64,000 nt of DNA from positions 81,263-145,262 of the forward strand of contig SUUJ01000002.1 in NCBI GenBank assembly GCA_015062585.1, given 5' to 3'. Shown here piece by piece: positions 14,296 to 64,000 of this stretch. Position 1 is the stretch's first letter, and each line of letters opens with the position of its first letter. This DNA comes from Alphaproteobacteria bacterium. Its GTDB lineage: Bacteria; Pseudomonadota; Alphaproteobacteria; RF32; CAG-239. The position numbers and the translations under genes are program-made. Below the pieces are notes generated by a model. It was given only the letters and a program-made list of their open reading frames with translations, had not been told where the DNA came from and ran no database searches.

Positions 14296-15253
14296 GGTGT
14301 CTTCCCATCTTCAAAAATTTGTCCGTTCTGCGTTTTTTTAATTCGTCACCGGTATGAACCGAAAGTTCTTTCAGATGACGAGCAATTACATCGCCTACTC
14401 TTAAAATTGTTTCTTTGTGATTTCTTTGCGCACCACCAATCGGCTCAGCAATAATTTCATCAATTGTTCCAAGTCTGCGCAAGTCTTGAGCGGTTAAACA
14501 CAAAGCTTCGGTCGCTTCCTTTACCTTTTCGGCAGAACGCCACAAAATAGAAGCACAACCTTCAGGCGATATAACCGAATATATAGAATGTTCAAGCATA
14601 AGGATTCTGTTGGCCGTAGCAATAGCTATTGCACCACCGGAACCGCCTTCACCGATTATTACCGAAATAAAAGGAACTTTTAAATTCAAGCATTTTTCAA
14701 TACTCGAGGCTATTGCTTGGGCTTGTCCTCTTTCTTCGGCGTCAACACCCGGAAAAGCACCTGATGTATCAACAAAAGCAATTACCGGAAGAGAAAATTT
14801 ATTAGCCAAATCCATCAATCTTTGAGCTTTGCGATATCCCTCAGGCTTTGCCATTCCAAAATTATATTTTACGCGCGATTCTAAATCATTACCTTTTTCT
14901 TGACCGATAACCACAACACTTTGGCCTCTGAAACGGCCGATTCCCCCGACCATGGCAAAGTCATCAGCAAAAGCCCTGTCGCCGCACAAATGTTCAAAAT
15001 CTTCAAACAAAACATTTATATAATCCAGGCAATGCGGACGATTGGGATGACGAGCTACTTGTGATTTTTGCCAAGGGGTGAGCTTGGTGTATATCTGTTT
15101 TAGCAATCTTTCGGATTTTTGTTGCAGGCGCGTTACTTCTGCCCCGATGTTAATTCCTTCGCCGGCCTCAACCTGTTTCAATCTTTTTATTTTTTCTTCA
15201 ACTTCGGCTATTGTTTTTTCAAATTCGAGAGTAATGATTTCGTTGTTTTCCAT
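14279..15253 (-). CDS. accA: Acetyl-CoA carboxylase carboxyltransferase alpha subunit
   Basis: 324 aa, canonical AccA ([17 protein letters not shown]...GGSGGAIAI). Its 3' end overlaps the rmuC start by 17 nt. Confidence 0.9.
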
Positions 15254-15428
15254 AAATTCAGCCTCTTCAGCAAATTTTGTATTTTTTTCAATCAGTCGAT
15301 TTATACCATATTTTTTTTCAAAATGCCAAGCTATTTTTCTTTTTGTGTAAGAAGCTATGAATTTTGTTTAAAAAAATGATAAACCTGATATTTATATATA
15401 ATATTTTAATATCCGGTGGAGTTTTTAT

Positions 15429-16550
15429 ATGATTCTGACTATTGCTTTGTTTAGTGTTGTTTTTTCATCAATCATATGGTTGGCTTATTCTATAAGATAT
15501 ATAACCGATTCTTTAGGTGATATGTCTTTTTTTGATGCCGGACTGTTAAATGTTTTGCTATATACTTTATTTGTTTGTCTGCCTGAATTTGTTATTTGGA
15601 TGATTTTTGGCTTTTTCAGCCAACACATCAACGGTCGAACAATCAGTCGCCAGATGTTCAAGCTTTTTGCCCAAATGAAAAAAAATCAAGAATATTCGGA
15701 TTTACTTGCTCGCATTATGCTTGAGACCGGAGAAAATATACGCAATTCTTTTATGATGAACAATTTTGATGTTCTCGTCGCCGATATGAATGAGCTGCTG
15801 TGTGAAATTCTTCAAAGAGACAATCTTATAACTTATGAAGAAGCAGGACAGCTTTGGACCAAGGTTCAAAACGGCGGAAAATGGGCGTTTGGAAAAGTTG
15901 TTATTGAGCGCTACAATAATTTTCCCGAGTTTAAAAATGATTTGTCAAAAGACGCCAAAATTGATAATGTTTTGGCCGGTTCCATTATGGAATTTTGCGC
16001 ACGCTATCAGTCATTGATAAGTTTGCTTGAAAAATATGACAAAGAAAAAACTTTCTTAAATGTGATAGAAACAGGTGTCTTTGGCAAAGTCTTTTCGGTT
16101 ATGGCTTCAATATCCGATGATTTAAGAAGGGTTAGAGAGCCCAGTGCTTCCAAAGAATTTGAAGAGTTTTCCGCAAACAAAAACAATAAAAAAGATACTT
16201 TTACCAAAACAACAAGTATTTTAAGCCGCTTTGCTTATCGCAAAAAAGATTTGCCTAAGATAAGAAGTGATAAAAAAGATGATTTTTCAAAAGCATTGGA
16301 GCGTTCATTTTCTGATGAGCCGATGATAGAAGAACCTAAAAAAGAATTTAGAGAAGACCACAAAGAACCGACTTTTACGGATGATTTTGATGGCAAAAAA
16401 GAACCTATGTCAGAAAATATCCCCGATTCTCAAAAAGTCTTGAACGATTTGAAAAAACAATGGGACGAAATAGAGCAAAAACAAACAGAAGAAGACGCTT
16501 TGGCTTATCCTTTTGGTGGTTGGACAGATGCTGAAAAGTATCAGAAATAG
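15429..16550 (+). CDS. Hypothetical membrane protein with acidic C-terminal tail
   Basis: 373 aa with two N-terminal TM helices and a Lys/Glu/Asp-rich C-terminus. Divergent from accA. No domain recognised. Confidence 0.45.
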   Translation: MILTIALFSVVFSSIIWLAYSIRYITDSLGDMSFFDAGLLNVLLYTLFVCLPEFVIWMIFGFFSQHINGRTISRQMFKLFAQMKKNQEYSDLLARIMLETGENIRNSFMMNNFDVLVADMNELLCEILQRDNLITYEEAGQLWTKVQNGGKWAFGKVVIERYNNFPEFKNDLSKDAKIDNVLAGSIMEFCARYQSLISLLEKYDKEKTFLNVIETGVFGKVFSVMASISDDLRRVREPSASKEFEEFSANKNNKKDTFTKTTSILSRFAYRKKDLPKIRSDKKDDFSKALERSFSDEPMIEEPKKEFREDHKEPTFTDDFDGKKEPMSENIPDSQKVLNDLKKQWDEIEQKQTEEDALAYPFGGWTDAEKYQK

Positions 16551-19523: not shown

Positions 19524-21431
19524 ATGAGCAATAAAGTAATAGGTATTGACCTTGGAACAACAAACTCTTGTTTTGCCGTTATGGAAGGCGGCGAAGCTAA
19601 AGTTTTAGAAAACTCTGAAGGTGCACGCACAACTCCTTCAATGGTAGCATTTACCGACACCGAACGCTTGGTTGGTTTCCCTGCAAAACGCCAAGCCGTA
19701 ACCAATCCGGAAAACACTCTGTTTGCAATCAAACGCTTAATCGGTCGTCGTTTTGATTCTGCCGAAGTAAAAAAAGACAAAGAGCTTGTTCCTTTCAAAA
19801 TTATTGAAGGCGATAACGGTGATGCATGGGTCGAAGCCAAAGGACAAAAATATGCTCCGTCTCAAATTTCAGCTATTGTATTGCAAAAAATTAAAGAATA
19901 CGCCGAAAGCTATTTGGGAGAAAAGATTGAAAAAGCCGTAATTACCGTACCGGCATATTTTAACGACTCTCAACGCCAAGCAACCAAAGATGCCGGTAAA
20001 ATTGCAGGCTTAGAAGTTTTGCGTATCATCAACGAGCCTACAGCTGCCGCTTTGGCTTATGGTATGGATAAAAAAACCAGCGGAACAATCGCTGTTTATG
20101 ACCTTGGTGGTGGTACATTTGATATTTCTATTTTGGAAATCGGTGATGGCGTATTCGAAGTAAAATCAACCAATGGTGATACATTCTTGGGTGGTGAAGA
20201 CTTTGACCAACGCTTGGTAAATTACTTGGCTGAGGAGTTCAAAAAAGAATCAGGTATTGACCTTAAAGCTGACAGACTTGCTTTACAACGCTTAAAAGAA
20301 GCTGCTGAAAAAGCTAAGATTGAATTGTCTTCAACTACACAAACCGAAGTAAACTTGCCGTTTATTACCGCTGATGCCACAGGTCCGAAGCACTTAAATA
20401 TTAAATTAACTCGTGCCAAACTTGAATCAATCGTTGAAGATTTGATTGATAGGACGGTTGAGCCTTGCAAAAAAGCTTTGGCTGACGCCGGAATTTCTGC
20501 TTCGGAAATCAGCGAAGTTATCTTGGTCGGTGGTATGACTCGTATGCCGAAAGTACAAGAAAAAGTTAAAGAAATCTTTGGCAAAGAAGCTCACAAAGGT
20601 GTAAATCCTGACGAAGTTGTTGCTGTCGGTGCTTCAATTCAAGGCGGTGTTTTGATGGGCGATGTCAAAGATGTGTTGTTGCTTGATGTAACACCGCTTT
20701 CTTTGGGTATTGAAACTTTGGGTGGAGTGTTCACTCGCTTGATTGATAGAAACACAACTATTCCGACCCGCAAATCGCAAGTATTTTCAACTGCCGAAGA
20801 CGGTCAAACAGCTGTTACTATCCGCGTATTCCAAGGCGAACGCGAAATGGCTGTCGACAACAAATTGCTCGGTCAATTTGATTTAGTAGGTATTCCGCCG
20901 GCACCTCGCGGTATGCCGCAAATTGAAGTTACTTTTGATATTGACGCCAACGGTATTGTTAATGTTTCAGCTAAGGATAAGGCTACCAACAAAGAGCAGG
21001 CTATCAGAATTCAAGCCAGTGGTGGTTTGTCTGACGCCGATATTGAAAAAATGGTAAAAGACGCCGAAGCTAATGCCGAAGCTGATAAAAAGTTAAAAGA
21101 AATTGTCGAAGCTAAAAACCATGCCGAAGCTTTAGTTCACTCAACCGAAAAAACTTTGAAAGAACATGGCGATAAAGTATCATCAGCTGAAAAAGAAGCT
21201 ATTGAAAAAGAAATCAATGCTTTGAAAACAGCTTTAGAAGCTGATGATTTGGCAGTTATCAAAGAAAAAACCGAAAGCTTAATGCAGGCTTCAATGAAAC
21301 TGGGTGAGGCTATGTACAAAGCTCAGGCCGAAGCTCAGGCTCAAGCCGGAGCAGCTCAAGGAGCTGAAGCCAATCCGGAACAACCGAAAGACGAAAAGGT
21401 TGTAGACGCCGACTTCGAAGAAGTAAAATAA
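19524..21431 (+). CDS. dnaK: Molecular chaperone DnaK (Hsp70)
   Basis: 635 aa. [22 protein letters not shown], and the C-terminal EEVK. Confidence 0.97.
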
Positions 21432-21949: not shown

Positions 21950-22503
21950 ATTAGTTATCAAAGATAAACTTCCACTAGCTTACGCAAGCGGAATTAACCA
22001 TCCCGAACTTCGTTCGTCCAGCCTTAAAGCTTCGCAAGCCTAATGGCTGGGTTGGATTGTCTACATCTACTTGCTTACGCAGGTAGTGTTACATACGAAG
22101 CATAAAAAATATTATTCTGTCACAAATTAACGCAAACATTAACAAAGTAAACGCAAAAAGCAAAAACTTATGAAAACGAAATACATAATAAGGACAGAAT
22201 AATATTTTATGATAAGTATATTATACCATGTTTACCCTCCCTGGTCAAGAGATGTAACTTTTTGAAAAACAAGGATAAAATAAAAAATAGCTGTCATAAC
22301 TTGAGCGAATGAAATAAAATAAAATAAAATGTCATTCCTCGCTCGGCGCTTTTGCGTCCGTGCGTCAAGGAATCTCATCTTTGCGCCAGCTACTAATTAA
22401 AGAAAAAAATTGAAGATCCCTTGACCTCACTTCGTTCGGAGGGATGACAGCTTAAATTTATGTAATGCCTTGAGTGAGGATATGAGGGAGACTAGGCATT
22501 TTC
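21950..22503. repeat. Intergenic repeat desert with several short palindromic repeat elements of the same family as at 62.5-63.5 kb
   Basis: Copies at 22322-22390 (AAATAAAATGTCATTCCTCGCTCGGCGCTTTTGCG...) and 22412-22503 (GAAGATCCC...GGGATGAC...ATGTAATGCCTTGAG...AGACTAGGCAT). A 14-bp inverted repeat, AATATTATTCTGTC / GACAGAATAATATT, lies at 22108-22121 and 22193-22206. Confidence 0.75.
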
Positions 22504-22506
22504 TGC

Positions 22507-23070
22507 TTAGCTTAATTTAATTTCTTCTAAAACACAGTCAAAACTCTCGTCTTTTGGTGAACAGGCATAAGCCCCGACCTCAACCGGCTGTTTTATTTCA
22601 GAATGATTTACAACGCGTATCTGCGCATATTTTTCATCATCTAACGCGTAATATACTACAAAATTTGATTCTCTGCGTTTTACTCTGAAGTTGATAGTTT
22701 TTATATCATCACTTAATGAAACGGTTGACCAATCACAATAACCGTTATTAGCAACAACAACTCCCAATTGTACGATGCCTGCTCCCATTGGCAAAAGTCC
22801 TGCTTTTATCCAATTTTTGCTGTCATATCGGATCATAACTCCACATTGAGCCGAATCAACAGTCTTTTCAAAAGACCATTTTGCATCGACGACAAAATTA
22901 TCGTTTTTATTACAAGCAAAAAAATGCCCATCTTCTTTTGATATGCCAAAAAGACTGTTTTGCCAAAAATCAGTATGAGGTTTGGTGGTAATAAGCAAGC
23001 CTTTTTCAATAAATTCAACATTTTTAGGCTCGTTAATCCAATCAAAATTTCTTATTTCTTCCAGTAACAT
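22507..23070 (-). CDS. DUF1349-like (concanavalin-fold) protein
   Basis: 187 aa, [20 protein letters not shown]... Resembles the DUF1349 / 3-keto-disaccharide hydrolase-like family. Its start overlaps the cbpA-like stop (TAATG). Confidence 0.5.
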   Translation of the reverse strand: MLLEEIRNFDWINEPKNVEFIEKGLLITTKPHTDFWQNSLFGISKEDGHFFACNKNDNFVVDAKWSFEKTVDSAQCGVMIRYDSKNWIKAGLLPMGAGIVQLGVVVANNGYCDWSTVSLSDDIKTINFRVKRRESNFVVYYALDDEKYAQIRVVNHSEIKQPVEVGAYACSPKDESFDCVLEEIKLS

Positions 23071-24014
23071 TAAAAAGTCCTAATATTTTCATCCGGCATA
23101 TTTTTTAACAAATTTTCTAACTCTGAATTTTTTTCTTTCGGCATAATTACATTCAAAATCACAATTTGGTCGCCACCTTTAACACCTTTGCCTTTCAGAC
23201 GCAATTTATCGCCGGTTGAGGCATAAGCAGGAATATTTAAGGCAACTTTGCCCGAAATTGTCGGAACGGTAACCTTAGCCCCTAGGATAGCTTCTTTTAA
23301 TGAAATGGGCAATTCCACGGAAATATTTTTGCCGTCCAAAGTAAAATAGGGATGTTTTTCGACATTAAGAGTAATCAAAACATCACCGTTTGCACCGCCG
23401 TTAAAACCTTGTTCCCCAAGTCCTTTAAGGCGTAAAGTTTGTCCGTCGACCGTACCTTGCGGTATCTTTACATTGATATTTTTGCCGTTGATATTTACGG
23501 TTTTGCTATCACCATTAGCTGCCGATAAAAAATCGATTTTCATAGTATAGTTAATATCATTACCCTTGCGCGAACGCATTGGTTGAGCACCGCCGAAACC
23601 ATTACCGAAAGGCGAAGAAGAGCCACCGGCAAATTTTGAAAAAATATCACTTCCGAAAATATCCGAAAAATCGAATGAGGCACCGTTTCCAAAACCGCCG
23701 GAACTGTATGACTGGTAGCCCCCGCCAAACGGATTTCCGTTACCGAAAGGATTGCCTCCGCCAAATCCCCCGGCGCCAAAACCGGTAGGTTTCCCGTCTG
23801 CATCGATTTCTTTATTGTCATATTTTTTGCGTTTTTCTTTGTCACCCAAAATATCATAAGCGCAAGAAATTTCCTTAAATTTCTCGGCAGCCTCTTTATT
23901 ATCTTTGTTCAAATCCGGATGATATTTACGCGCAAGTTTACGATATGCCGACTTTATCTCATTTTCCGTAGAGTTTTTAGACACACCCAAAATATTGTAC
24001 AAATCTTTTGTCAT
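23070..24014 (-). CDS. CbpA-like J-domain co-chaperone (DnaJ class lacking the zinc finger)
   Basis: J domain ([35 protein letters not shown]), Gly/Phe-rich linker and DnaJ C-terminal domains. No CxxCxGxG repeats. Confidence 0.8.
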
Positions 24015-59385: not shown

Positions 59386-61263
59386 ATGAAACAAAAGAAA
59401 CTTCAAATCCTAGCGTGGATTGGTATTGTTATGGCAATGTTTGCCATTGAAAGTTGCGAAATGCAAAACGCCCCAGACTTAGATTTTAATCAACAGGGGA
59501 TTTATGTCAAGGGAGACGGCAAAGACAGTATTCCTTATGCTGTACATGATACCGTTTTCATCCCAAGTGACAGTACTGTTATAAACTTTATTGACAGTAC
59601 TGTTATAAACTTTATTGACAGTACGGTTATTACTTACATAGACAGTGTTATATACGATACTTTGCCCAGCGGTGAAGTGGACACAATCTACATCTACCGT
59701 AAGCCAAAGATCAACTGTGTTAAATTTTTTGAGGGACAAATATTCCTTCACGACAGCACAGGGCTTGTCTATGCAATGAGTTTCCCATATTCAATGAATA
59801 TTGCGGACACTCTGAGGTTTAAGACAGAAGCTGATACTATCAGTATGCTGACAGGCAATACCTTTATTTTCAAAGACTTAGGCACTTCTAAAGTTGATGT
59901 CCGTTTTTCTAACGAAACAGATATCATCACATCAAGTGTTGATGTTCCTTGGGTTATGGGATTGACCATTAACGGCGATTATGTTGAAACTTGTGTCGAT
60001 TACACCTTAAATGTTTCGATACTGGAAAGAAAGACCGAAAATGGGTACCTGTACCTCAAGGTCAACTACGCAATCACCTTCGAGGATGATTACGGAATTA
60101 CTAGGTCCGCGATTTCTAAAAATCAGGTAATTGTTGCTCCTATCAAGGAGGAAGAAAAACCTGAGCCTGAGAATGTACGCACTAAAGATATCGACTATGT
60201 TATAGATACAGCTCAGACCCACCAAGGTGGTAGATTGACAGCAATCATCAACATTGTCAATTCTTTAGAGACTATTGAAGATTCCACTATTTCTGTAGAA
60301 GCTCCGATAGTTTTATCCATCAAAGCAGGTGACTCAACATCTGTTATCGGCTCAAATTTTGATGTTACTCCAGGTGTTCTAAGATTGGAGGAGTCAAAAT
60401 GTGAGGCTAAAAGTACCACCAAAGACGGTGTTACAATTAGCTGGAATGAATACACGGTAATGTGTCCTCAGGACATTGTTGCTGGTGGAGAGCATTTGAA
60501 TGTCGTACAAACCGTTACTTATACTAACGATTATGTAATCACATTCGAAGACACCACAGTAGCTATTCCTTTAACCTTGGATGTACAACAAATATCCAAG
60601 AGCGATGATGGAGATGTTAAGGCAGAGGGTGGTTATGCAAAGCAAGATGTTAAGTTGACTTATGAGGCCAGCTTGACAGATATGCAAACAATGGTTGAAC
60701 TGACAGACAAAGCTGAGCAAAAGATCAGTATTCTCTTCAAGGCGATTAGCTTTGATGGTCAGGTAGTTGATACTGTTTATCAGACAGCTACTTATCCGGA
60801 CATTAATGAGATTCCGATAATTTGCACTGCTGTGTTGACTCACAGTGAGACAAATCCATCTCAGCACTATGTCCACTACCGCTTTGAAGGTAGCGCAAAC
60901 ACATCTTGGACTTCAGTAACACTGACAGACGCTGAATATGATTATATAATAAATCATAAAGGCGCACCTATGGCTGGCCAATGGGCTCTTACTGTTTGCT
61001 ACCCAAATGGCAAAACAGGAGATGTCGTAGTCGGTTATTTGGACGATCATTGTCCAATAGAGGTTATGTATTATAGCCCCGGATATAACGACTACACGGT
61101 AATGACCAGTCAGAACACAATGTTTGGCGCTCTTAACCGTGCAGTTGTTTGCAGTGGTTCAAGATTGTCAAACGGACTGATAGAGTTAAAAAACCCAACT
61201 GATGTTAAGTTGGGCGAGAAAGTGATATATCCTGCACAAACAAGTGCTATCTACTTTCTCTAA
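59386..61263 (+). CDS. Large lipoprotein with in-frame 24-bp tandem repeats (DSTVINFI x3)
   Basis: Signal peptide MKQKKLQILAWIGIVMAMFAIESC. Tandem DNA repeat GACAGTACTGTTATAAACTTTATT at 59570-59645. Beta-rich composition. Confidence 0.5.
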   Translation: MKQKKLQILAWIGIVMAMFAIESCEMQNAPDLDFNQQGIYVKGDGKDSIPYAVHDTVFIPSDSTVINFIDSTVINFIDSTVITYIDSVIYDTLPSGEVDTIYIYRKPKINCVKFFEGQIFLHDSTGLVYAMSFPYSMNIADTLRFKTEADTISMLTGNTFIFKDLGTSKVDVRFSNETDIITSSVDVPWVMGLTINGDYVETCVDYTLNVSILERKTENGYLYLKVNYAITFEDDYGITRSAISKNQVIVAPIKEEEKPEPENVRTKDIDYVIDTAQTHQGGRLTAIINIVNSLETIEDSTISVEAPIVLSIKAGDSTSVIGSNFDVTPGVLRLEESKCEAKSTTKDGVTISWNEYTVMCPQDIVAGGEHLNVVQTVTYTNDYVITFEDTTVAIPLTLDVQQISKSDDGDVKAEGGYAKQDVKLTYEASLTDMQTMVELTDKAEQKISILFKAISFDGQVVDTVYQTATYPDINEIPIICTAVLTHSETNPSQHYVHYRFEGSANTSWTSVTLTDAEYDYIINHKGAPMAGQWALTVCYPNGKTGDVVVGYLDDHCPIEVMYYSPGYNDYTVMTSQNTMFGALNRAVVCSGSRLSNGLIELKNPTDVKLGEKVIYPAQTSAIYFL

Positions 61264-61330
61264 TATGTAGAACCCGCCGGCATATTTGCAAAGATTTTTT
61301 TGTAAATATGCTAGCATAAATCCTAGAATT

Positions 61331-62440
61331 ATGGCAAAAAAGAAATGGCTGTTATTGATTATCATGATAGCCTCTATAAGCGCACACGCGCAGTACACAG
61401 CATCCCACAATTTTTACGCTGTTACAGAAGCGGAGATGGGGATTGACTCGGTAAAAACCGATCCAAGATATTGGGCGGGATTTAATATATCCAACACACT
61501 TGTATGGCCCAACGGCCTCATGGTTGATCTTGGAGGCGCTTATGCCCTCTCGTCAAAATATGAAGTCAAAGGAACTTTTAATACGGGTATCGGATACAAA
61601 TTTACCGATTGGTTTAACGCTAAAGCTGTTCTAAAAAATGGTTTCGCAACCTCATTAGACAGTATTAGCTTTCATAATACCAAGAACGATGACTGGTATT
61701 ATGAATACCGAAAGAGTCCGTATTATTTAGTTAACTTTAATTTAGAAGCCATCTTCAAAATTAAAGACTTTATTATAGGATTATCAGCTGGTTATAACCA
61801 CTATACTCCTATAGGCAACATAAATAAGACTTTAGGTGAAAATTGGGTGTTGGAAAACTCTTCAATAGCCCCTAAAAACAGCTTAACCTTAGGGTTAAAT
61901 GTTGGATATTCTATCCCCAACACAGTAAAAAAAGACGGAGACAATCCGTTTGAGTTTTTTGCTGAAACTGGTTGGAATAGTCTTTTCGGAGCCAAAGCCG
62001 GAATTGCCACAGGTTATACCTGGCGTATGAACTATTGGCTTATGTTGGAGGCATCAACCGGAATTGATTATTATTGGCAAAGCCAAAGTTTGGCTGCCAA
62101 CATCAAGTTCGGACCAAAATTTGCTCCTTGGGGTTATAATTCAAAAGTTATTTTTGCTCTTTATGGGCAAGTTGCTTTTGGTGAGTACTATGGCTTGAAA
62201 TACAATGTACAAGCTGAAAACCCTGAGCGACTGGATGTAGGAGGTTTGAATAATACTTTGGGTCTCAACCTTATGTTGACACCTGAAGTTTCACTAAACC
62301 TCAACCGTGTTGGTATATTGTTTGGTTGCCGAGGCGGATATTTTTTCCGTTCCGGATTTGACGGTCACAATGTGACGGCAACCGTAAGCGATTACAAAGG
62401 GTGGAACATCGAGCCTTATCTGGCGATAAGGATCAATTAG
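61331..62440 (+). CDS. Putative outer-membrane beta-barrel protein
   Basis: Start at MAKKKWLLLIIMIASISAHAQ (Bacteroidetes-style signal peptide). Alternating amphipathic beta-strand pattern, Gly/Tyr/Asn-rich. Confidence 0.45.
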   Translation: MAKKKWLLLIIMIASISAHAQYTASHNFYAVTEAEMGIDSVKTDPRYWAGFNISNTLVWPNGLMVDLGGAYALSSKYEVKGTFNTGIGYKFTDWFNAKAVLKNGFATSLDSISFHNTKNDDWYYEYRKSPYYLVNFNLEAIFKIKDFIIGLSAGYNHYTPIGNINKTLGENWVLENSSIAPKNSLTLGLNVGYSIPNTVKKDGDNPFEFFAETGWNSLFGAKAGIATGYTWRMNYWLMLEASTGIDYYWQSQSLAANIKFGPKFAPWGYNSKVIFALYGQVAFGEYYGLKYNVQAENPERLDVGGLNNTLGLNLMLTPEVSLNLNRVGILFGCRGGYFFRSGFDGHNVTATVSDYKGWNIEPYLAIRIN

Positions 62441-62461: not shown

Positions 62462-62500
62462 AGAGAGCCGACACCTTGTGTGTCGACTCTCTTTTTTTTT
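62462..62500 (+). terminator. Rho-independent terminator
   Basis: AGAGAGCCGACACCTTGTGTGTCGACTCTCTTTTTTTTTT. Confidence 0.7.
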
Positions 62501-62520: not shown

Positions 62521-62760
62521 TCACCTGAGAGAATAAATAATGTTATTCCTCGCGCGGCGCTTTGCCGTAAAAACATATGTCATCGCCTGAGTGAGCTTGC
62601 GAACGAGGTTAGCGATCTTCAAATTATTCTTAAAAACAAGGAAGATCCCTGGAATTTTTTGTTGCACAAAAAATAGGGATGACTTTGTTGTTGTTTTATG
62701 TCATGCCTTGAGCGGAACTTTAGTGTAGCGAGACTAGGCATCTTCAAATTAGATTAAATT
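62521..62760. repeat. Cluster of palindromic repeat elements (upstream arm of the array flanking the GIY-YIG gene)
   Basis: 62527-62575: GAATAAATAATGTTATTCCTCGCGCGGCGCTTTGCCG. 62577-62622: ATGTCATCGCCTGAGTGAGCTTGCGAACGAGGTTAGCGATCTTC. 62641-62746: GAAGATCCCT...GGGATGACTTTGTTGTTGTTT...ATGTCATGCCTTGAGCGG...AGACTAGGCATCTTC. Confidence 0.75.
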
Positions 62761-62802
62761 ATTACATTGACTTAATAAATTGATATATATTATATTTTTT
62801 AT

Positions 62803-63096
62803 ATGAAAACAATGTATGTATATATAATGACCAATATAAATAATACCACACTGTATGTTGGTGTTACAAATGATTTGTGTCGTCGAGTATATGAACATAA
62901 AAATGATATATTTAAAGGTTTTACAGCAAAATATTCTCTCCATAAATTAGTTTATTTTGAAACTTTTGAAGATGAATTATCTGCTATTGCTTGTGAAAAA
63001 TATTTAAAAAAATGTTTTAGAAAAACAAAAGAAAAACTAATCAGCAAAAAGAATCCTCAATGGAATGATTTGTCTGATGATTTTAAACTAATCTGA
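62803..63096 (+). CDS. Standalone GIY-YIG nuclease domain protein (COG2827/YhbQ-like)
   Basis: 97 aa: YVYIMTN..LYVGVTNDLCRRVYEHKN. GIY-YIG motifs with conserved Arg and Glu. Confidence 0.8.
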   Translation: MKTMYVYIMTNINNTTLYVGVTNDLCRRVYEHKNDIFKGFTAKYSLHKLVYFETFEDELSAIACEKYLKKCFRKTKEKLISKKNPQWNDLSDDFKLI

Positions 63097-63490
63097 AGAT
63101 CGCTAACCTCGTTCGCAAGCTCACTCAAGCGATGACTTATTTTTTATAAGAAACAACAACAAAGTCATCCCTCGATTGCGTTGAGCAATCGTCTAGGGAT
63201 CTTCAAATTAAATAAAACAAGAACCGCGATTTATGTTTTTTAGCTTTTTTTGACCGGAAACTATCCTTTTATGCACCCAAAGTCAGCCAACGGATGTGAA
63301 GGGCACATCCGGTTGAAAAAAGCGTATAAAAAAACATCTTGAGCGGTGACTTTTGGTTACTTTTGGTCATTCAAAAGTAACATAAGAATAATTTGAAGAT
63401 GCCTAGTCTCGCTACACTAAAGTTCCGCTCAAGGTATGACCTTATTTTTTTCGCCAAAGCGCCGAGCGAGGAATGACATTATTTATTCAC
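63095..63490. repeat. Inverted copies of the same palindromic repeat elements (downstream arm)
   Basis: 63095-63204 is the reverse complement of the 62577-62746 pattern (GAAGATCGCTAACCTCGTTCGCAAGCTCACTCA...AAAGTCATCCCTCG...GGGATCTTC). 63395-63488 is the reverse complement of 62527-62575 plus the 62700-62746 core (GAAGATGCCTAGTCTCGCTACACTAAAGTTCCGCTCAAGGTATGAC...CGCCGAGCGAGGAATGACATTATTTATTC). Additional perfect hairpins at 63290-63315 and 63352-63381. Confidence 0.75.
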
Positions 63491-63618
63491 TTAAGACGAC
63501 GACATTTTTTATCATTGCTTTGGTGGTAGCGACGCGGAAATTTCGGCATACTTATAAAAAAAGCGGAACTTATTTTAATCAAAAGCCCCGCTTTTACTCT
63601 AGGAGTTAGTGCTGTTTA

Positions 63619-64000
63619 TTAAAAAGTAAATCTTATACCGGCATACCATTCATGACCGTTTATTTCACCTTCTTCAATCTTACCCAAGGTATAATAACGA
63701 TAACCGGCATCAATATTCAAACATTTGTTAATTCTCAATGTCAAACCGGCACCGGCCTGCCAAGAAAATTTACTATCTTCACTAGTAAAGGTATTCTGAT
63801 TGTTTCTAATTTTAAATTCTATCTCGCTATAACCGATACCACCGTTGATATAAGGGCTTATCCAATAGTTTGGCATAAAGTCAATATAGCCGTTCAACAT
63901 CAATGACTGAGCCTCAACATAAGTCGAGTTTGCCCAATTTCCGACACTATTGTAGCTTTCTTCTTCAGCGTTATCTCTAACAACATATTCTATTTCACCG
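63619..64000 (-). CDS. Outer-membrane beta-barrel protein (OmpA/OmpW-like porin family), C-terminal part; gene continues past window end
   Basis: Ends ...GHEWYAGIRFTF with the proteobacterial C-terminal Phe signature. The minus-strand reading frame stays open to position 64000. Confidence 0.55.
   Translation of the reverse strand, partial: GEIEYVVRDNAEEESYNSVGNWANSTYVEAQSLMLNGYIDFMPNYWISPYINGGIGYSEIEFKIRNNQNTFTSEDSKFSWQAGAGLTLRINKCLNIDAGYRYYTLGKIEEGEINGHEWYAGIRFTF

Follow-up and report, generated by a model that had tools for sequence, protein, structure and literature searches.

Results

Short hairpin repeats and a GIY-YIG gene at two loci

The 64-kb stretch of alphaproteobacterial DNA analyzed here (the window) contains a family of short, oriented palindromic repeats at two loci, and a gene for a small GIY-YIG nuclease lies inside the second of them. 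The repeats are very probably Ssn-related motifs (SRMs), DNA hairpins of the class of the Neisseria repeat NTS, and the gene very probably encodes their SsnA-family nuclease. Chenal et al. (Nat Commun 2025, PMC11893778) described NTS (CGTCATTCCCGCGMAVGCGGGAATCYRG) together with related repeats from many phyla, the SRMs.

The basic unit is an oriented hairpin of 45 to 52 nt, short conserved flanks included, with the form GTC-AT(N)(S)C(T)...(A)G(S)(N)AT-CTTC(AAATTA). Units were located with a covariance model, R1, made from 67 distinct units, six of them from the window. Run over the whole window with filters off, R1 returned eight significant units (E = 3e-17 to 3e-5) and one decayed unit (E = 0.35); two half-units were read from the sequence. 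The stretch 22327-22509 holds three units and 62575-63444 the other six, both orientations being represented, and no further R1 match reaches E < 0.6 in the rest of the window. The type-f unit at 22327-22382 is absent from the R1 training set, yet it was detected. A relaxed pattern (GTCAT + xyz ... z'y'x' + ATC) occurs at 10 window sites, compared with a mean of 1.07 and a maximum of 4 in 200 Markov shuffles. A repeat finder reports inverted arms of 52 to 65 nt that are 81 to 98% complementary (pairs I1 to I4). All window copies lie between genes. The features are listed below under the names that follow from the probable identification.

Locus 1 (22327-22509)
22327..22382, + strand: SRM unit of type f, GTCATTCCT-CGCTCGGCGCTTTTGCGTCCGTGCG-TCA-AGGAATC-TCA; R1 26.9 bits, E = 2.7e-5
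22406..22452, - strand: SRM unit of type g, GTCATCCCTCCGAACGAAGTGAGGTCAAGGGATCTTC; R1 E = 1.2e-13
22458..22509, + strand: decayed SRM unit, GTAATGCCTTGAGTGAGG...GACTAGGCATTTTC; R1 13.5 bits, E = 0.35

Locus 2 (62542-63477)
62542..62564, + strand: half type-f unit, 5' part, GTTATTCCTCGCGCGGCGCTTTG; read from the sequence; inverted repeat I2 with 63428-63491
62575..62626, + strand: SRM unit a, GTCATCGCCTGAGTGAGCTTGCGAACGAGGTTAGCGATCTTC; R1 E = 2.3e-11
62635..62687, - strand: SRM unit b, GTCATCCCTATTTTTTGTGCAACAAAAAATTCCAGGGATCTTC; R1 E = 1.1e-12; DNA fold -10.2 kcal/mol, z = -5.2
62696..62751, + strand: SRM unit c, GTCATGCCTTGAGCGGAAC...GAGACTAGGCATCTTC; R1 E = 5.9e-11; directly 5' of the ssnA promoter-like site
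62803..63096, + strand: ssnA homologue, single-domain GIY-YIG, 97 aa; PF01541 E = 9e-16
63089..63140, - strand: SRM unit a', inverted copy of a; R1 E = 1.4e-11; its GAAGAT end overlaps the ssnA TGA stop
63160..63210, + strand: SRM unit d, GTCATCCCT-CGATTGC-GTTGA-GCAATCG-TCT-AGGGATC-TTC; R1 65.9 bits, E = 2.6e-17
63205..63394, no strand assigned: long-palindrome module of ~190 nt that accompanies SRM units; a mosaic partner, not itself an SRM
63389..63444, - strand: SRM unit c', GTCATACC...; one basal-stem mismatch; R1 E = 7.3e-7
63454..63477, - strand: half type-f unit, 5' part, GTCATTCCTCGCTCGGCGCTTTGG; inverted partner of 62542-62564 (I2, I4)

The ssnA homologue, a single copy, is bracketed by units a (+), b (-) and c (+) upstream and by a' (-), d (+), c' (-) and a half-unit downstream. 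The inverted partner of unit a is 63089-63140 (I1, 65 nt, 89% complementary) and that of unit c is 63389-63444 (I3, 52 nt, 98% complementary). The order GTC-AT..AT-C is present in eight of the nine window units. The GTC head and the C after the palindrome (ATC), both invariant in the unit alignment A1, are each found in eight of nine; the decayed unit 22458-22509 has GTA for GTC and ATT for ATC. The interior of this unit is related to those of types c and h, and at its 3' end it runs into the DUF1349 stop codon. At least nine unit types occur in one genome, and their upper stems are unrelated in sequence.

A preliminary description of this DNA had proposed a family of ~100-bp palindromic repeats. 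The description is borne out in that the repeats form a real family of short palindromes, most of them between genes; the sequence blocks that it quoted are present in the window, and its clustering of copies at two loci in both orientations agrees with the R1 search of the whole window. Copies do stand at gene ends, adjoining the DUF1349 stop (22507) and extending over the GIY-YIG stop (63094-63096). The size has to be halved: the 100-bp palindrome with termini GAAGAT...ATCTTC is two units of 45 to 52 nt placed tail to tail (22406-22509, 62635-62751, 63089-63210). What had been set apart as a second module, AAATAATGTCATTCCTCGC.., is another unit type (f) of the same family, which is full length at 22327-22382 and represented only by its 5' half at 62542-62564 (+) and 63454-63477 (-). 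The "at least five copies" are real repeats, and the count is nine units plus two half-units. Within the proposed span of 21950-22503, the units occupy 22327-22509, and 21950-22320 lies outside the family, with no R1 match and no similar DNA among the comparison loci L001-L133 by BLAST. On these two negatives the candidate reading of 21950-22320 as decayed copies was rejected, and the segment was removed from the feature. Rfam contains no relevant family at gathering thresholds over the whole window or at E <= 1 over both loci, the only hits being chance fragments of miRNA, CrcZ and glmS, and a tRNA scan found nothing near the repeats.

Two-tier hairpin architecture

The unit folds as a two-tier hairpin: above a basal stem of 6 bp come a 3' bulge of 3 nt, TCA in most cases, and a variable upper stem of ~7 bp, and the tail is CTTC(AAATTA). 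The structural analysis used 160 distinct units, taken from related loci as well as the window and chosen by the anchors GTCAT ... ATCTTC alone. The four variable basal pairs are Watson-Crick in 72 to 91% of the 160 units, and two basal positions swap C-G for G-C (81/50 and 108/31). In a register scan above the basal stem, only a 3-nt 3' bulge gives a second helix, which has ~7 pairs at 66 to 91% complementarity. Of the 138 units with three or all four variable basal pairs intact, 81 have TCA as the bulge.

The two-helix model pairs 90% of the cells of alignment A1 compared with 64.7% in column shuffles, none of 500 reaching the observed value, and 200 cells are changed on both sides compared with 63.5 in the shuffles. 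When the partner was moved by 1 to 3 columns as a slid control, 30 to 44% of cells were paired. All seven upper-stem pairs carry compensatory changes in A1. The basal stem ATNSCT/AGSNAT is 97% paired with C-G/G-C covariation; this helix, unlike the upper one, was partly selected for by the choice of units. One upper part can be carried by compensated basal stems in different species: that of type g recurs in L017 on a changed basal stem, ATGCCT/AGGCAT there and ATCCCT/AGGGAT in the window. Types b, d and f fold as strong single-stranded DNA hairpins (z = -5.2 to -6.3). Unit d is the cleanest two-tier hairpin (-11.4 kcal/mol, z = -6.3), and a near-identical copy of type f in L002 (15343-15389) folds at -13.3 kcal/mol (z = -5.4). 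The basal stem, bulge and flanks are invariant and the upper stem is free, which suggests that the base of the hairpin is all that the nuclease reads.

The GIY-YIG protein is homologous to SsnA

In the published system SRMs flank ssnA, a 94-aa single-domain GIY-YIG gene (PMC11893778). Binding of the hairpin by SsnA is confined to single-stranded DNA and to one of the two strands, and the cut falls a few nucleotides upstream; in Neisseria, cutting depends most on the three bases that precede the palindrome (GTC), and binding on the C directly behind it (PMC11893778). Homologues from other Neisseria species and Wolbachia act alike on their own motifs, and the catalytic and cofactor residues Y6, Y17 and E64 of SsnA were mutated in that work, which defines the Ssn nuclease family as CDD cd10448 (PMC11893778).

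The window protein is 97 aa long, or 94 aa if started at M4 (62812), and a promoter-like site precedes it at 62767-62796. PF01541 covers residues 4-76 and is the sole domain found. A tblastn search of a 7.3-Gb plasmid collection with this protein returned one site in each of two N. gonorrhoeae chromosomes at E = 1e-14. These are two complete 2.17-Mb chromosomes filed as plasmids in PLSDB (NZ_CP119140.1 and NZ_CP119142.1; L134). The gonococcal match is a 94-aa open reading frame (ORF) with Y6, Y17 and E64 that sits amid 16 NTS copies in 3.2 kb. Pairwise BLASTP of the window protein against this SsnA orthologue gave 43% identity over 89 aa with no gaps (E = 9e-26), and window residues Y7, Y18 and E65 align with SsnA Y6, Y17 and E64. 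Homology to Neisseria SsnA was set at E < 1e-10 in the published study (PMC11893778), and the window protein falls within that bound. The UPF0213 structures 1zg2 and 1ywl are only weak PDB matches (E = 5e-4 and 0.012), the PDB sequence search found no Ssn structure, and NCBIfam gave nothing above its cut-offs for the window protein.

The SRM-ssnA-SRM layout is also seen around homologues of 71 to 74% identity in other metagenome-assembled genomes (MAGs; L007-L017), where the unit interiors are different. Together with the homology, this arrangement argues that 62803-63096 probably encodes an SsnA-family nuclease cognate to the repeats, as part of the SRM-SsnA identification as a whole.

The repeats are dispersed in ruminant-gut Alphaproteobacteria

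The preliminary description had held that sequences confined to the two window loci would be local duplications, and copies prove to occur beyond these loci, so that the family appears to be dispersed. An identical GIY-YIG protein is encoded on 23 metagenome contigs, and the shared DNA is 98 to 100% identical to the window in the rearranged ones. Locus 1 occupied one and the same place across 23 contigs, with no differing gene neighborhood reported. One of these contigs, L002, shares 10.6 kb with the window at 99.8% identity and carries an extra six-unit cluster 5 kb further on (15249-15766), between unrelated genes, bringing the loci seen in the source species to three, the two in the window and this one. 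A metagenome scan for the type-f module matched seven contigs of one assembly, from a closely related strain. Their longest shared stretch is 5.6 kb at 98% identity to L003, the others being 78 to 97% identical. Four of the seven have new flanks with the repeat at the contig end, which gives at least four further contexts.

Related species were surveyed by a genome scan, with one genome per species, for the pattern GTCATNSC-N(20-34)-GSNATCTTCAAATT; the source species is absent among the matches listed. At least 116 stretches matched, with uncultured Alphaproteobacteria from the gut or rumen of cattle, goat, sheep, roe deer and reindeer accounting for about 80 of those listed. Two stem positions are left free by the pattern. 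Among the matches listed, these are complementary in 88 of 94 from ruminant-gut Alphaproteobacteria and in 14 of 39 from other taxa, with a chance expectation of 1 in 8. Related MAGs carry units on at least five to eight different contigs each. None of the scanned related loci among the matches listed carries ssnA; MAG JAZRHM01 has SRM contigs without ssnA and ssnA on another contig. Only 18% of 168 units lie inside stop-to-stop frames of at least 120 codons, though such frames cover 83% of the DNA.

The relatives of the host are MAGs from gut and rumen that encode flagella, pili and porins, and GC content is 36%. The family is thus dispersed in uncultured ruminant-gut Alphaproteobacteria, and the host is not an endosymbiont. 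A second SRM subfamily was observed in a roe-deer rumen MAG downstream of dnaK (L096 1400-1700), where the palindrome CGTCATTGCGAGG...GTGGCAATC stands in tandem with a window-type unit. The intergenic region beyond dnaK bears SRMs in two species with unrelated neighboring genes.

Rearrangement junctions lie within units

Three metagenome contigs depart from the order of the window, and every junction in L002, L003 and L006 is inside an SRM unit. L006 consists of window 62579-63145 followed by the reverse complement of 62638-62412, and the overlap is unit a/a'. Its two a-units are reciprocal hybrids of the window pair in their 5' flank, an internal C/T difference and the 3' tail. As the contig reads, L006 is a simple inversion of the segment b-c-ssnA. 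In L003 the reverse complement of 64000-63389 is joined to 62700-63138 through unit c/c', and the contig departs from the window right after unit a' into a flagellin region. L002 tracks the window to unit c' and then enters another locus; all 19 mismatches of the 1147-nt alignment are inside the unit interior. Mis-joins are argued against by repeat length, since the repeats of 52 to 69 nt are shorter than the 141-mer that "k141" in the names of L003 and L006 appears to imply.

The earlier suggestion that the repeats could be recombination substrates gains support from this cassette inversion and the other rearrangements, whose junctions fall within units a and c. SRM arrays appear here as preferred sites of genome rearrangement. 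The exchanges could be due either to the nuclease or to ordinary homologous recombination between inverted repeats of 50 to 65 nt.

Accompanying module and neighboring genes

The ~190-nt module between units d and c' has copies of 91 to 98% identity in L002 (10403-10592, 10771-10961 and 15408-15597), L103 (252-440), L137 (32-218) and L142, always beside SRM units. Its fold has z = -5.5 on the + strand and -4.5 on the - strand. A 33-codon ORF within it was considered as a small gene and rejected. The start is lost or the frame shifted in other copies, so the module is probably non-coding.

The ssnA/SRM locus is preceded by two large orphan genes of surface type (window 59386-62440), one for a putative lipoprotein of 625 aa and one for a porin-like protein of 384 aa, with no Pfam match for either. 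On the other side, an outer-membrane protein (OMP) beta-barrel gene starts at 63619 and is followed by a type IVb pilus-like cluster (T2SSE, T2SSF, secretin, PilO, TcpQ; L001/L003). Flagellar genes adjoin the locus in other strains. SRM arrays beside surface-structure genes parallel the Neisseria pattern.

At locus 1, the segment 21950-22110 (-) forms three hairpins with GNRA tetraloops (GUAA, GCGA, GUAA; RNA fold z = -3.8). They sit between a strong promoter-like site at 22248-22220 (TTGACC-17-TATAAT, with TG) and an orphan 138-aa ORF at 21913-21497 that has no family match. The GNRA-hairpin region has no Rfam match and no similar DNA among L001-L133. It looks like a structured 5' leader outside the repeat family. 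A J-domain protein (23070-24014, - strand) has DnaJ and DnaJ_C domains and no zinc-finger domain match, and its gene is on the opposite strand to dnaK (19524-21431, + strand). It looks like a CbpA-type co-chaperone and not a dnaJ split from a dnaKJ operon. The preliminary description had placed the first cluster at one end of a segment separating dnaK from dnaJ; no operon split is indicated, because the J gene is on the opposite strand and has no zinc-finger match.

Discussion

The repeats and the GIY-YIG gene are a new instance of a described system. The preliminary description had supposed that the family may be undescribed, a view superseded by the head, the tail and the gene association, all three shared with the NTS/SRM-SsnA system, on which a paper appeared in 2025. 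The literature search found no later Ssn papers. SRMs are defined in words as "20-50 nt inverted repeats" (PMC11893778), and the window variant falls within that description.

Several points weigh against this identification. The published string HGTCWYN(0-2)YYVSBRHN(0-5)WNVSBRGN(0-2)RNCYNB has no match in the window (shuffle mean 0.05), while the canonical NTS used as a control matches. The string misses the units because the distance from head to tail is 25 to 36 nt here and 14 to 23 nt are allowed; the head and tail parts HGTCWY...RNCYNB fit six of the nine window units. Recognition of the longer, bulged hairpin by the nuclease is assumed, and both the binding of single-stranded DNA and the position of the cut are taken over from homologues with 43% identity. 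As isolated DNA, types a, c, e, g and h form weak folds (z -1.0 to +1.2) unless non-canonical G.A pairs are counted. In our reading, tandem G.A pairs in a Y-GA-R context sometimes close the upper stem of these weak types. Finally, the rearranged contigs are metagenome assemblies.

Other kinds of element account for part of the data. Action at the RNA level, as terminators, mRNA stabilizers or small RNAs, would fit units at gene ends, the hairpin-like covariation and the G-U-type changes at the first upper-stem pair (11 U-G). A terminator role, which the preliminary description had raised, is contradicted by several features: no T-run follows the hairpins, which continue into CTTCAAATTA, the units take both orientations relative to the flanking genes, and the porin-like upstream gene has its own terminator at 62469-62485. 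The two weak terminator-like matches fall on unit fragments only (62651-62637, - strand, and 22492-22510, + strand, in the decayed unit). There is also no Rfam match, and the homologous nuclease does not act on RNA (PMC11893778). An RNA-level function as the explanation of the family is therefore very unlikely, and an additional effect on transcripts may exist. The ~100-bp composites (GAAGAT...ATCTTC) could instead be miniature inverted-repeat transposable elements moved by a transposase encoded elsewhere, with the GIY-YIG gene an unrelated neighbor. Composites do have inverted termini and recur as blocks: 22328-22460 recurs at 86 to 91% identity in L050, L094 and L117, and 62577-62653 in L122, and the 190-nt module moves along with units. 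We consider this highly improbable. The conserved entity is the single oriented unit, which is arranged singly, head to head, tail to tail or in tandem, and its head and tail match NTS and not any insertion sequence end. No target-site duplication is visible at the ends of composites, and no transposase was seen in the loci examined, the window ORFs having been scanned in part. The pairing of GIY-YIG gene and hairpins, moreover, recurs in relatives despite different unit interiors.

Two further alternatives deserve almost no weight. Repetitive extragenic palindromic (REP) sequences and bacterial interspersed mosaic elements (BIMEs) served by a REP-associated tyrosine transposase (RAYT), an IS200/IS605-like Y1 transposase, are likewise short oriented hairpins in alternating clusters that flank a nuclease gene in inverted orientation. 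Here the flanked gene encodes a GIY-YIG nuclease and not a Y1 transposase, the protein is homologous to SsnA, and the head is GTCAT and not the GTAG of REPs, which makes this explanation extremely unlikely. Equally hard to credit are selfish repeats like the Rickettsia palindromic elements (RPEs) in a reduced endosymbiont genome, the comparison favored by the preliminary description. The repeats are short and palindromic in an AT-rich (36% GC) alphaproteobacterial genome, and Rickettsia and Wolbachia are listed among SRM-rich genomes (PMC11893778). The units, however, are 45 to 52 nt and not 100 to 150 nt, they are depleted in open frames (18% of units versus 83% of the DNA), and the relatives are flagellated, piliated, porin-bearing MAGs from gut and rumen. 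An NTS-type head and tail together with an SsnA homologue are left unexplained by any of these rivals.

With the SRM-SsnA identification, a mechanism can be proposed from the Neisseria and Wolbachia homologues (PMC11893778). DNA made single-stranded by replication, repair or recombination, or entering the cell as such, would fold into the hairpin. The small monomeric nuclease would bind the basal stem and the following C. Cutting would then take place on the strand that carries the hairpin, a few nucleotides 5' of GTC, and neither the complementary strand nor double-stranded DNA or RNA would be a substrate. Here the pair could serve, as in Neisseria, to restrict incoming single strands, or it could promote rearrangements, or the units could be selfish elements. 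A more ambitious proposal makes SRM/Ssn in this clade an active rearrangement system, and more than a filter for DNA from outside, in which the nuclease nicks extruded hairpins and drives cassette inversion and exchange between distant arrays near surface-protein, pilus and flagellar genes, the hypervariable upper stems on an invariant basal stem and TCA bulge acting as an address code for pairing. We regard this as unlikely.

The present case would extend the Ssn/SRM system to an uncultured ruminant-gut alphaproteobacterial lineage. The published motif misses the arrangement of basal stem, TCA bulge and free upper stem with 25 to 36 nt between head and tail. Being blind to such hairpins, censuses that used this motif probably undercount SRM-bearing genomes. 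Many unit types built on one basal stem suggest that only the base is read, a property that would be useful for Ssn enzymes as programmable single-stranded DNA cutters. Beyond Neisseria, inversions between strains whose junctions lie within SRM units give natural evidence of rearrangement at such arrays.

Comparison with known systems

RPEs share with the present units the character of short palindromic repeats in Alphaproteobacteria. They are 100 to 150 nt long and often lie in frame within genes, whereas the units here are ~50 nt, intergenic and accompanied by a partner nuclease. The resemblance to REP/BIME-RAYT systems is closer in layout, with mosaic clusters and with a domesticated nuclease gene bracketed by inverted copies of a hairpin that its product recognizes, here presumably, in single-stranded DNA. 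GTAG is the typical conserved head of REPs. The fold of the nuclease (GIY-YIG here, HUH Y1 there) and the head of the hairpin (GTCAT here, GTAG there) set the two apart. An analogy with REP/RAYT is drawn by the authors of the Ssn study themselves (PMC11893778), and our literature search pairing GIY-YIG with REP hairpins returned nothing, while that with RAYT returned only irrelevant fungal mitogenome papers.

The arrays also resemble the dRS3 and Neisseria intergenic mosaic element (NIME) arrays. The NIME layout is a mosaic of intergenic repeats, and in dRS3/NIME arrays short hairpins alternate with repeated modules of 50 to 200 nt beside surface-protein genes. The corresponding order here is SRM, 190-nt palindromic module, SRM, beside porin and OMP genes, and the module sequences are unrelated to those of Neisseria. 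Such Neisseria arrays are associated with elevated recombination (PMC11893778).

The closest match is to NTS/SRM itself. In both, a palindrome that starts and ends with AT is preceded by GTC and followed by C, both have units on either side of a single-domain GIY-YIG gene of 94 to 97 aa, and both appear to have many further copies, clustered and mostly intergenic. The hairpin here differs from NTS/SRM in being longer and two-tiered, with a TCA bulge, a hypervariable upper stem of ~7 bp and a conserved CTTC(AAATTA) tail; at least nine unit types occur in one genome, and the host is an uncultured ruminant-gut alphaproteobacterium. No link to natural transformation is known for the present host. 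The repeat family is largely explained by the 2025 paper, and what is distinctive of the present instance is the long, bulged hairpin and the evidence of rearrangement.

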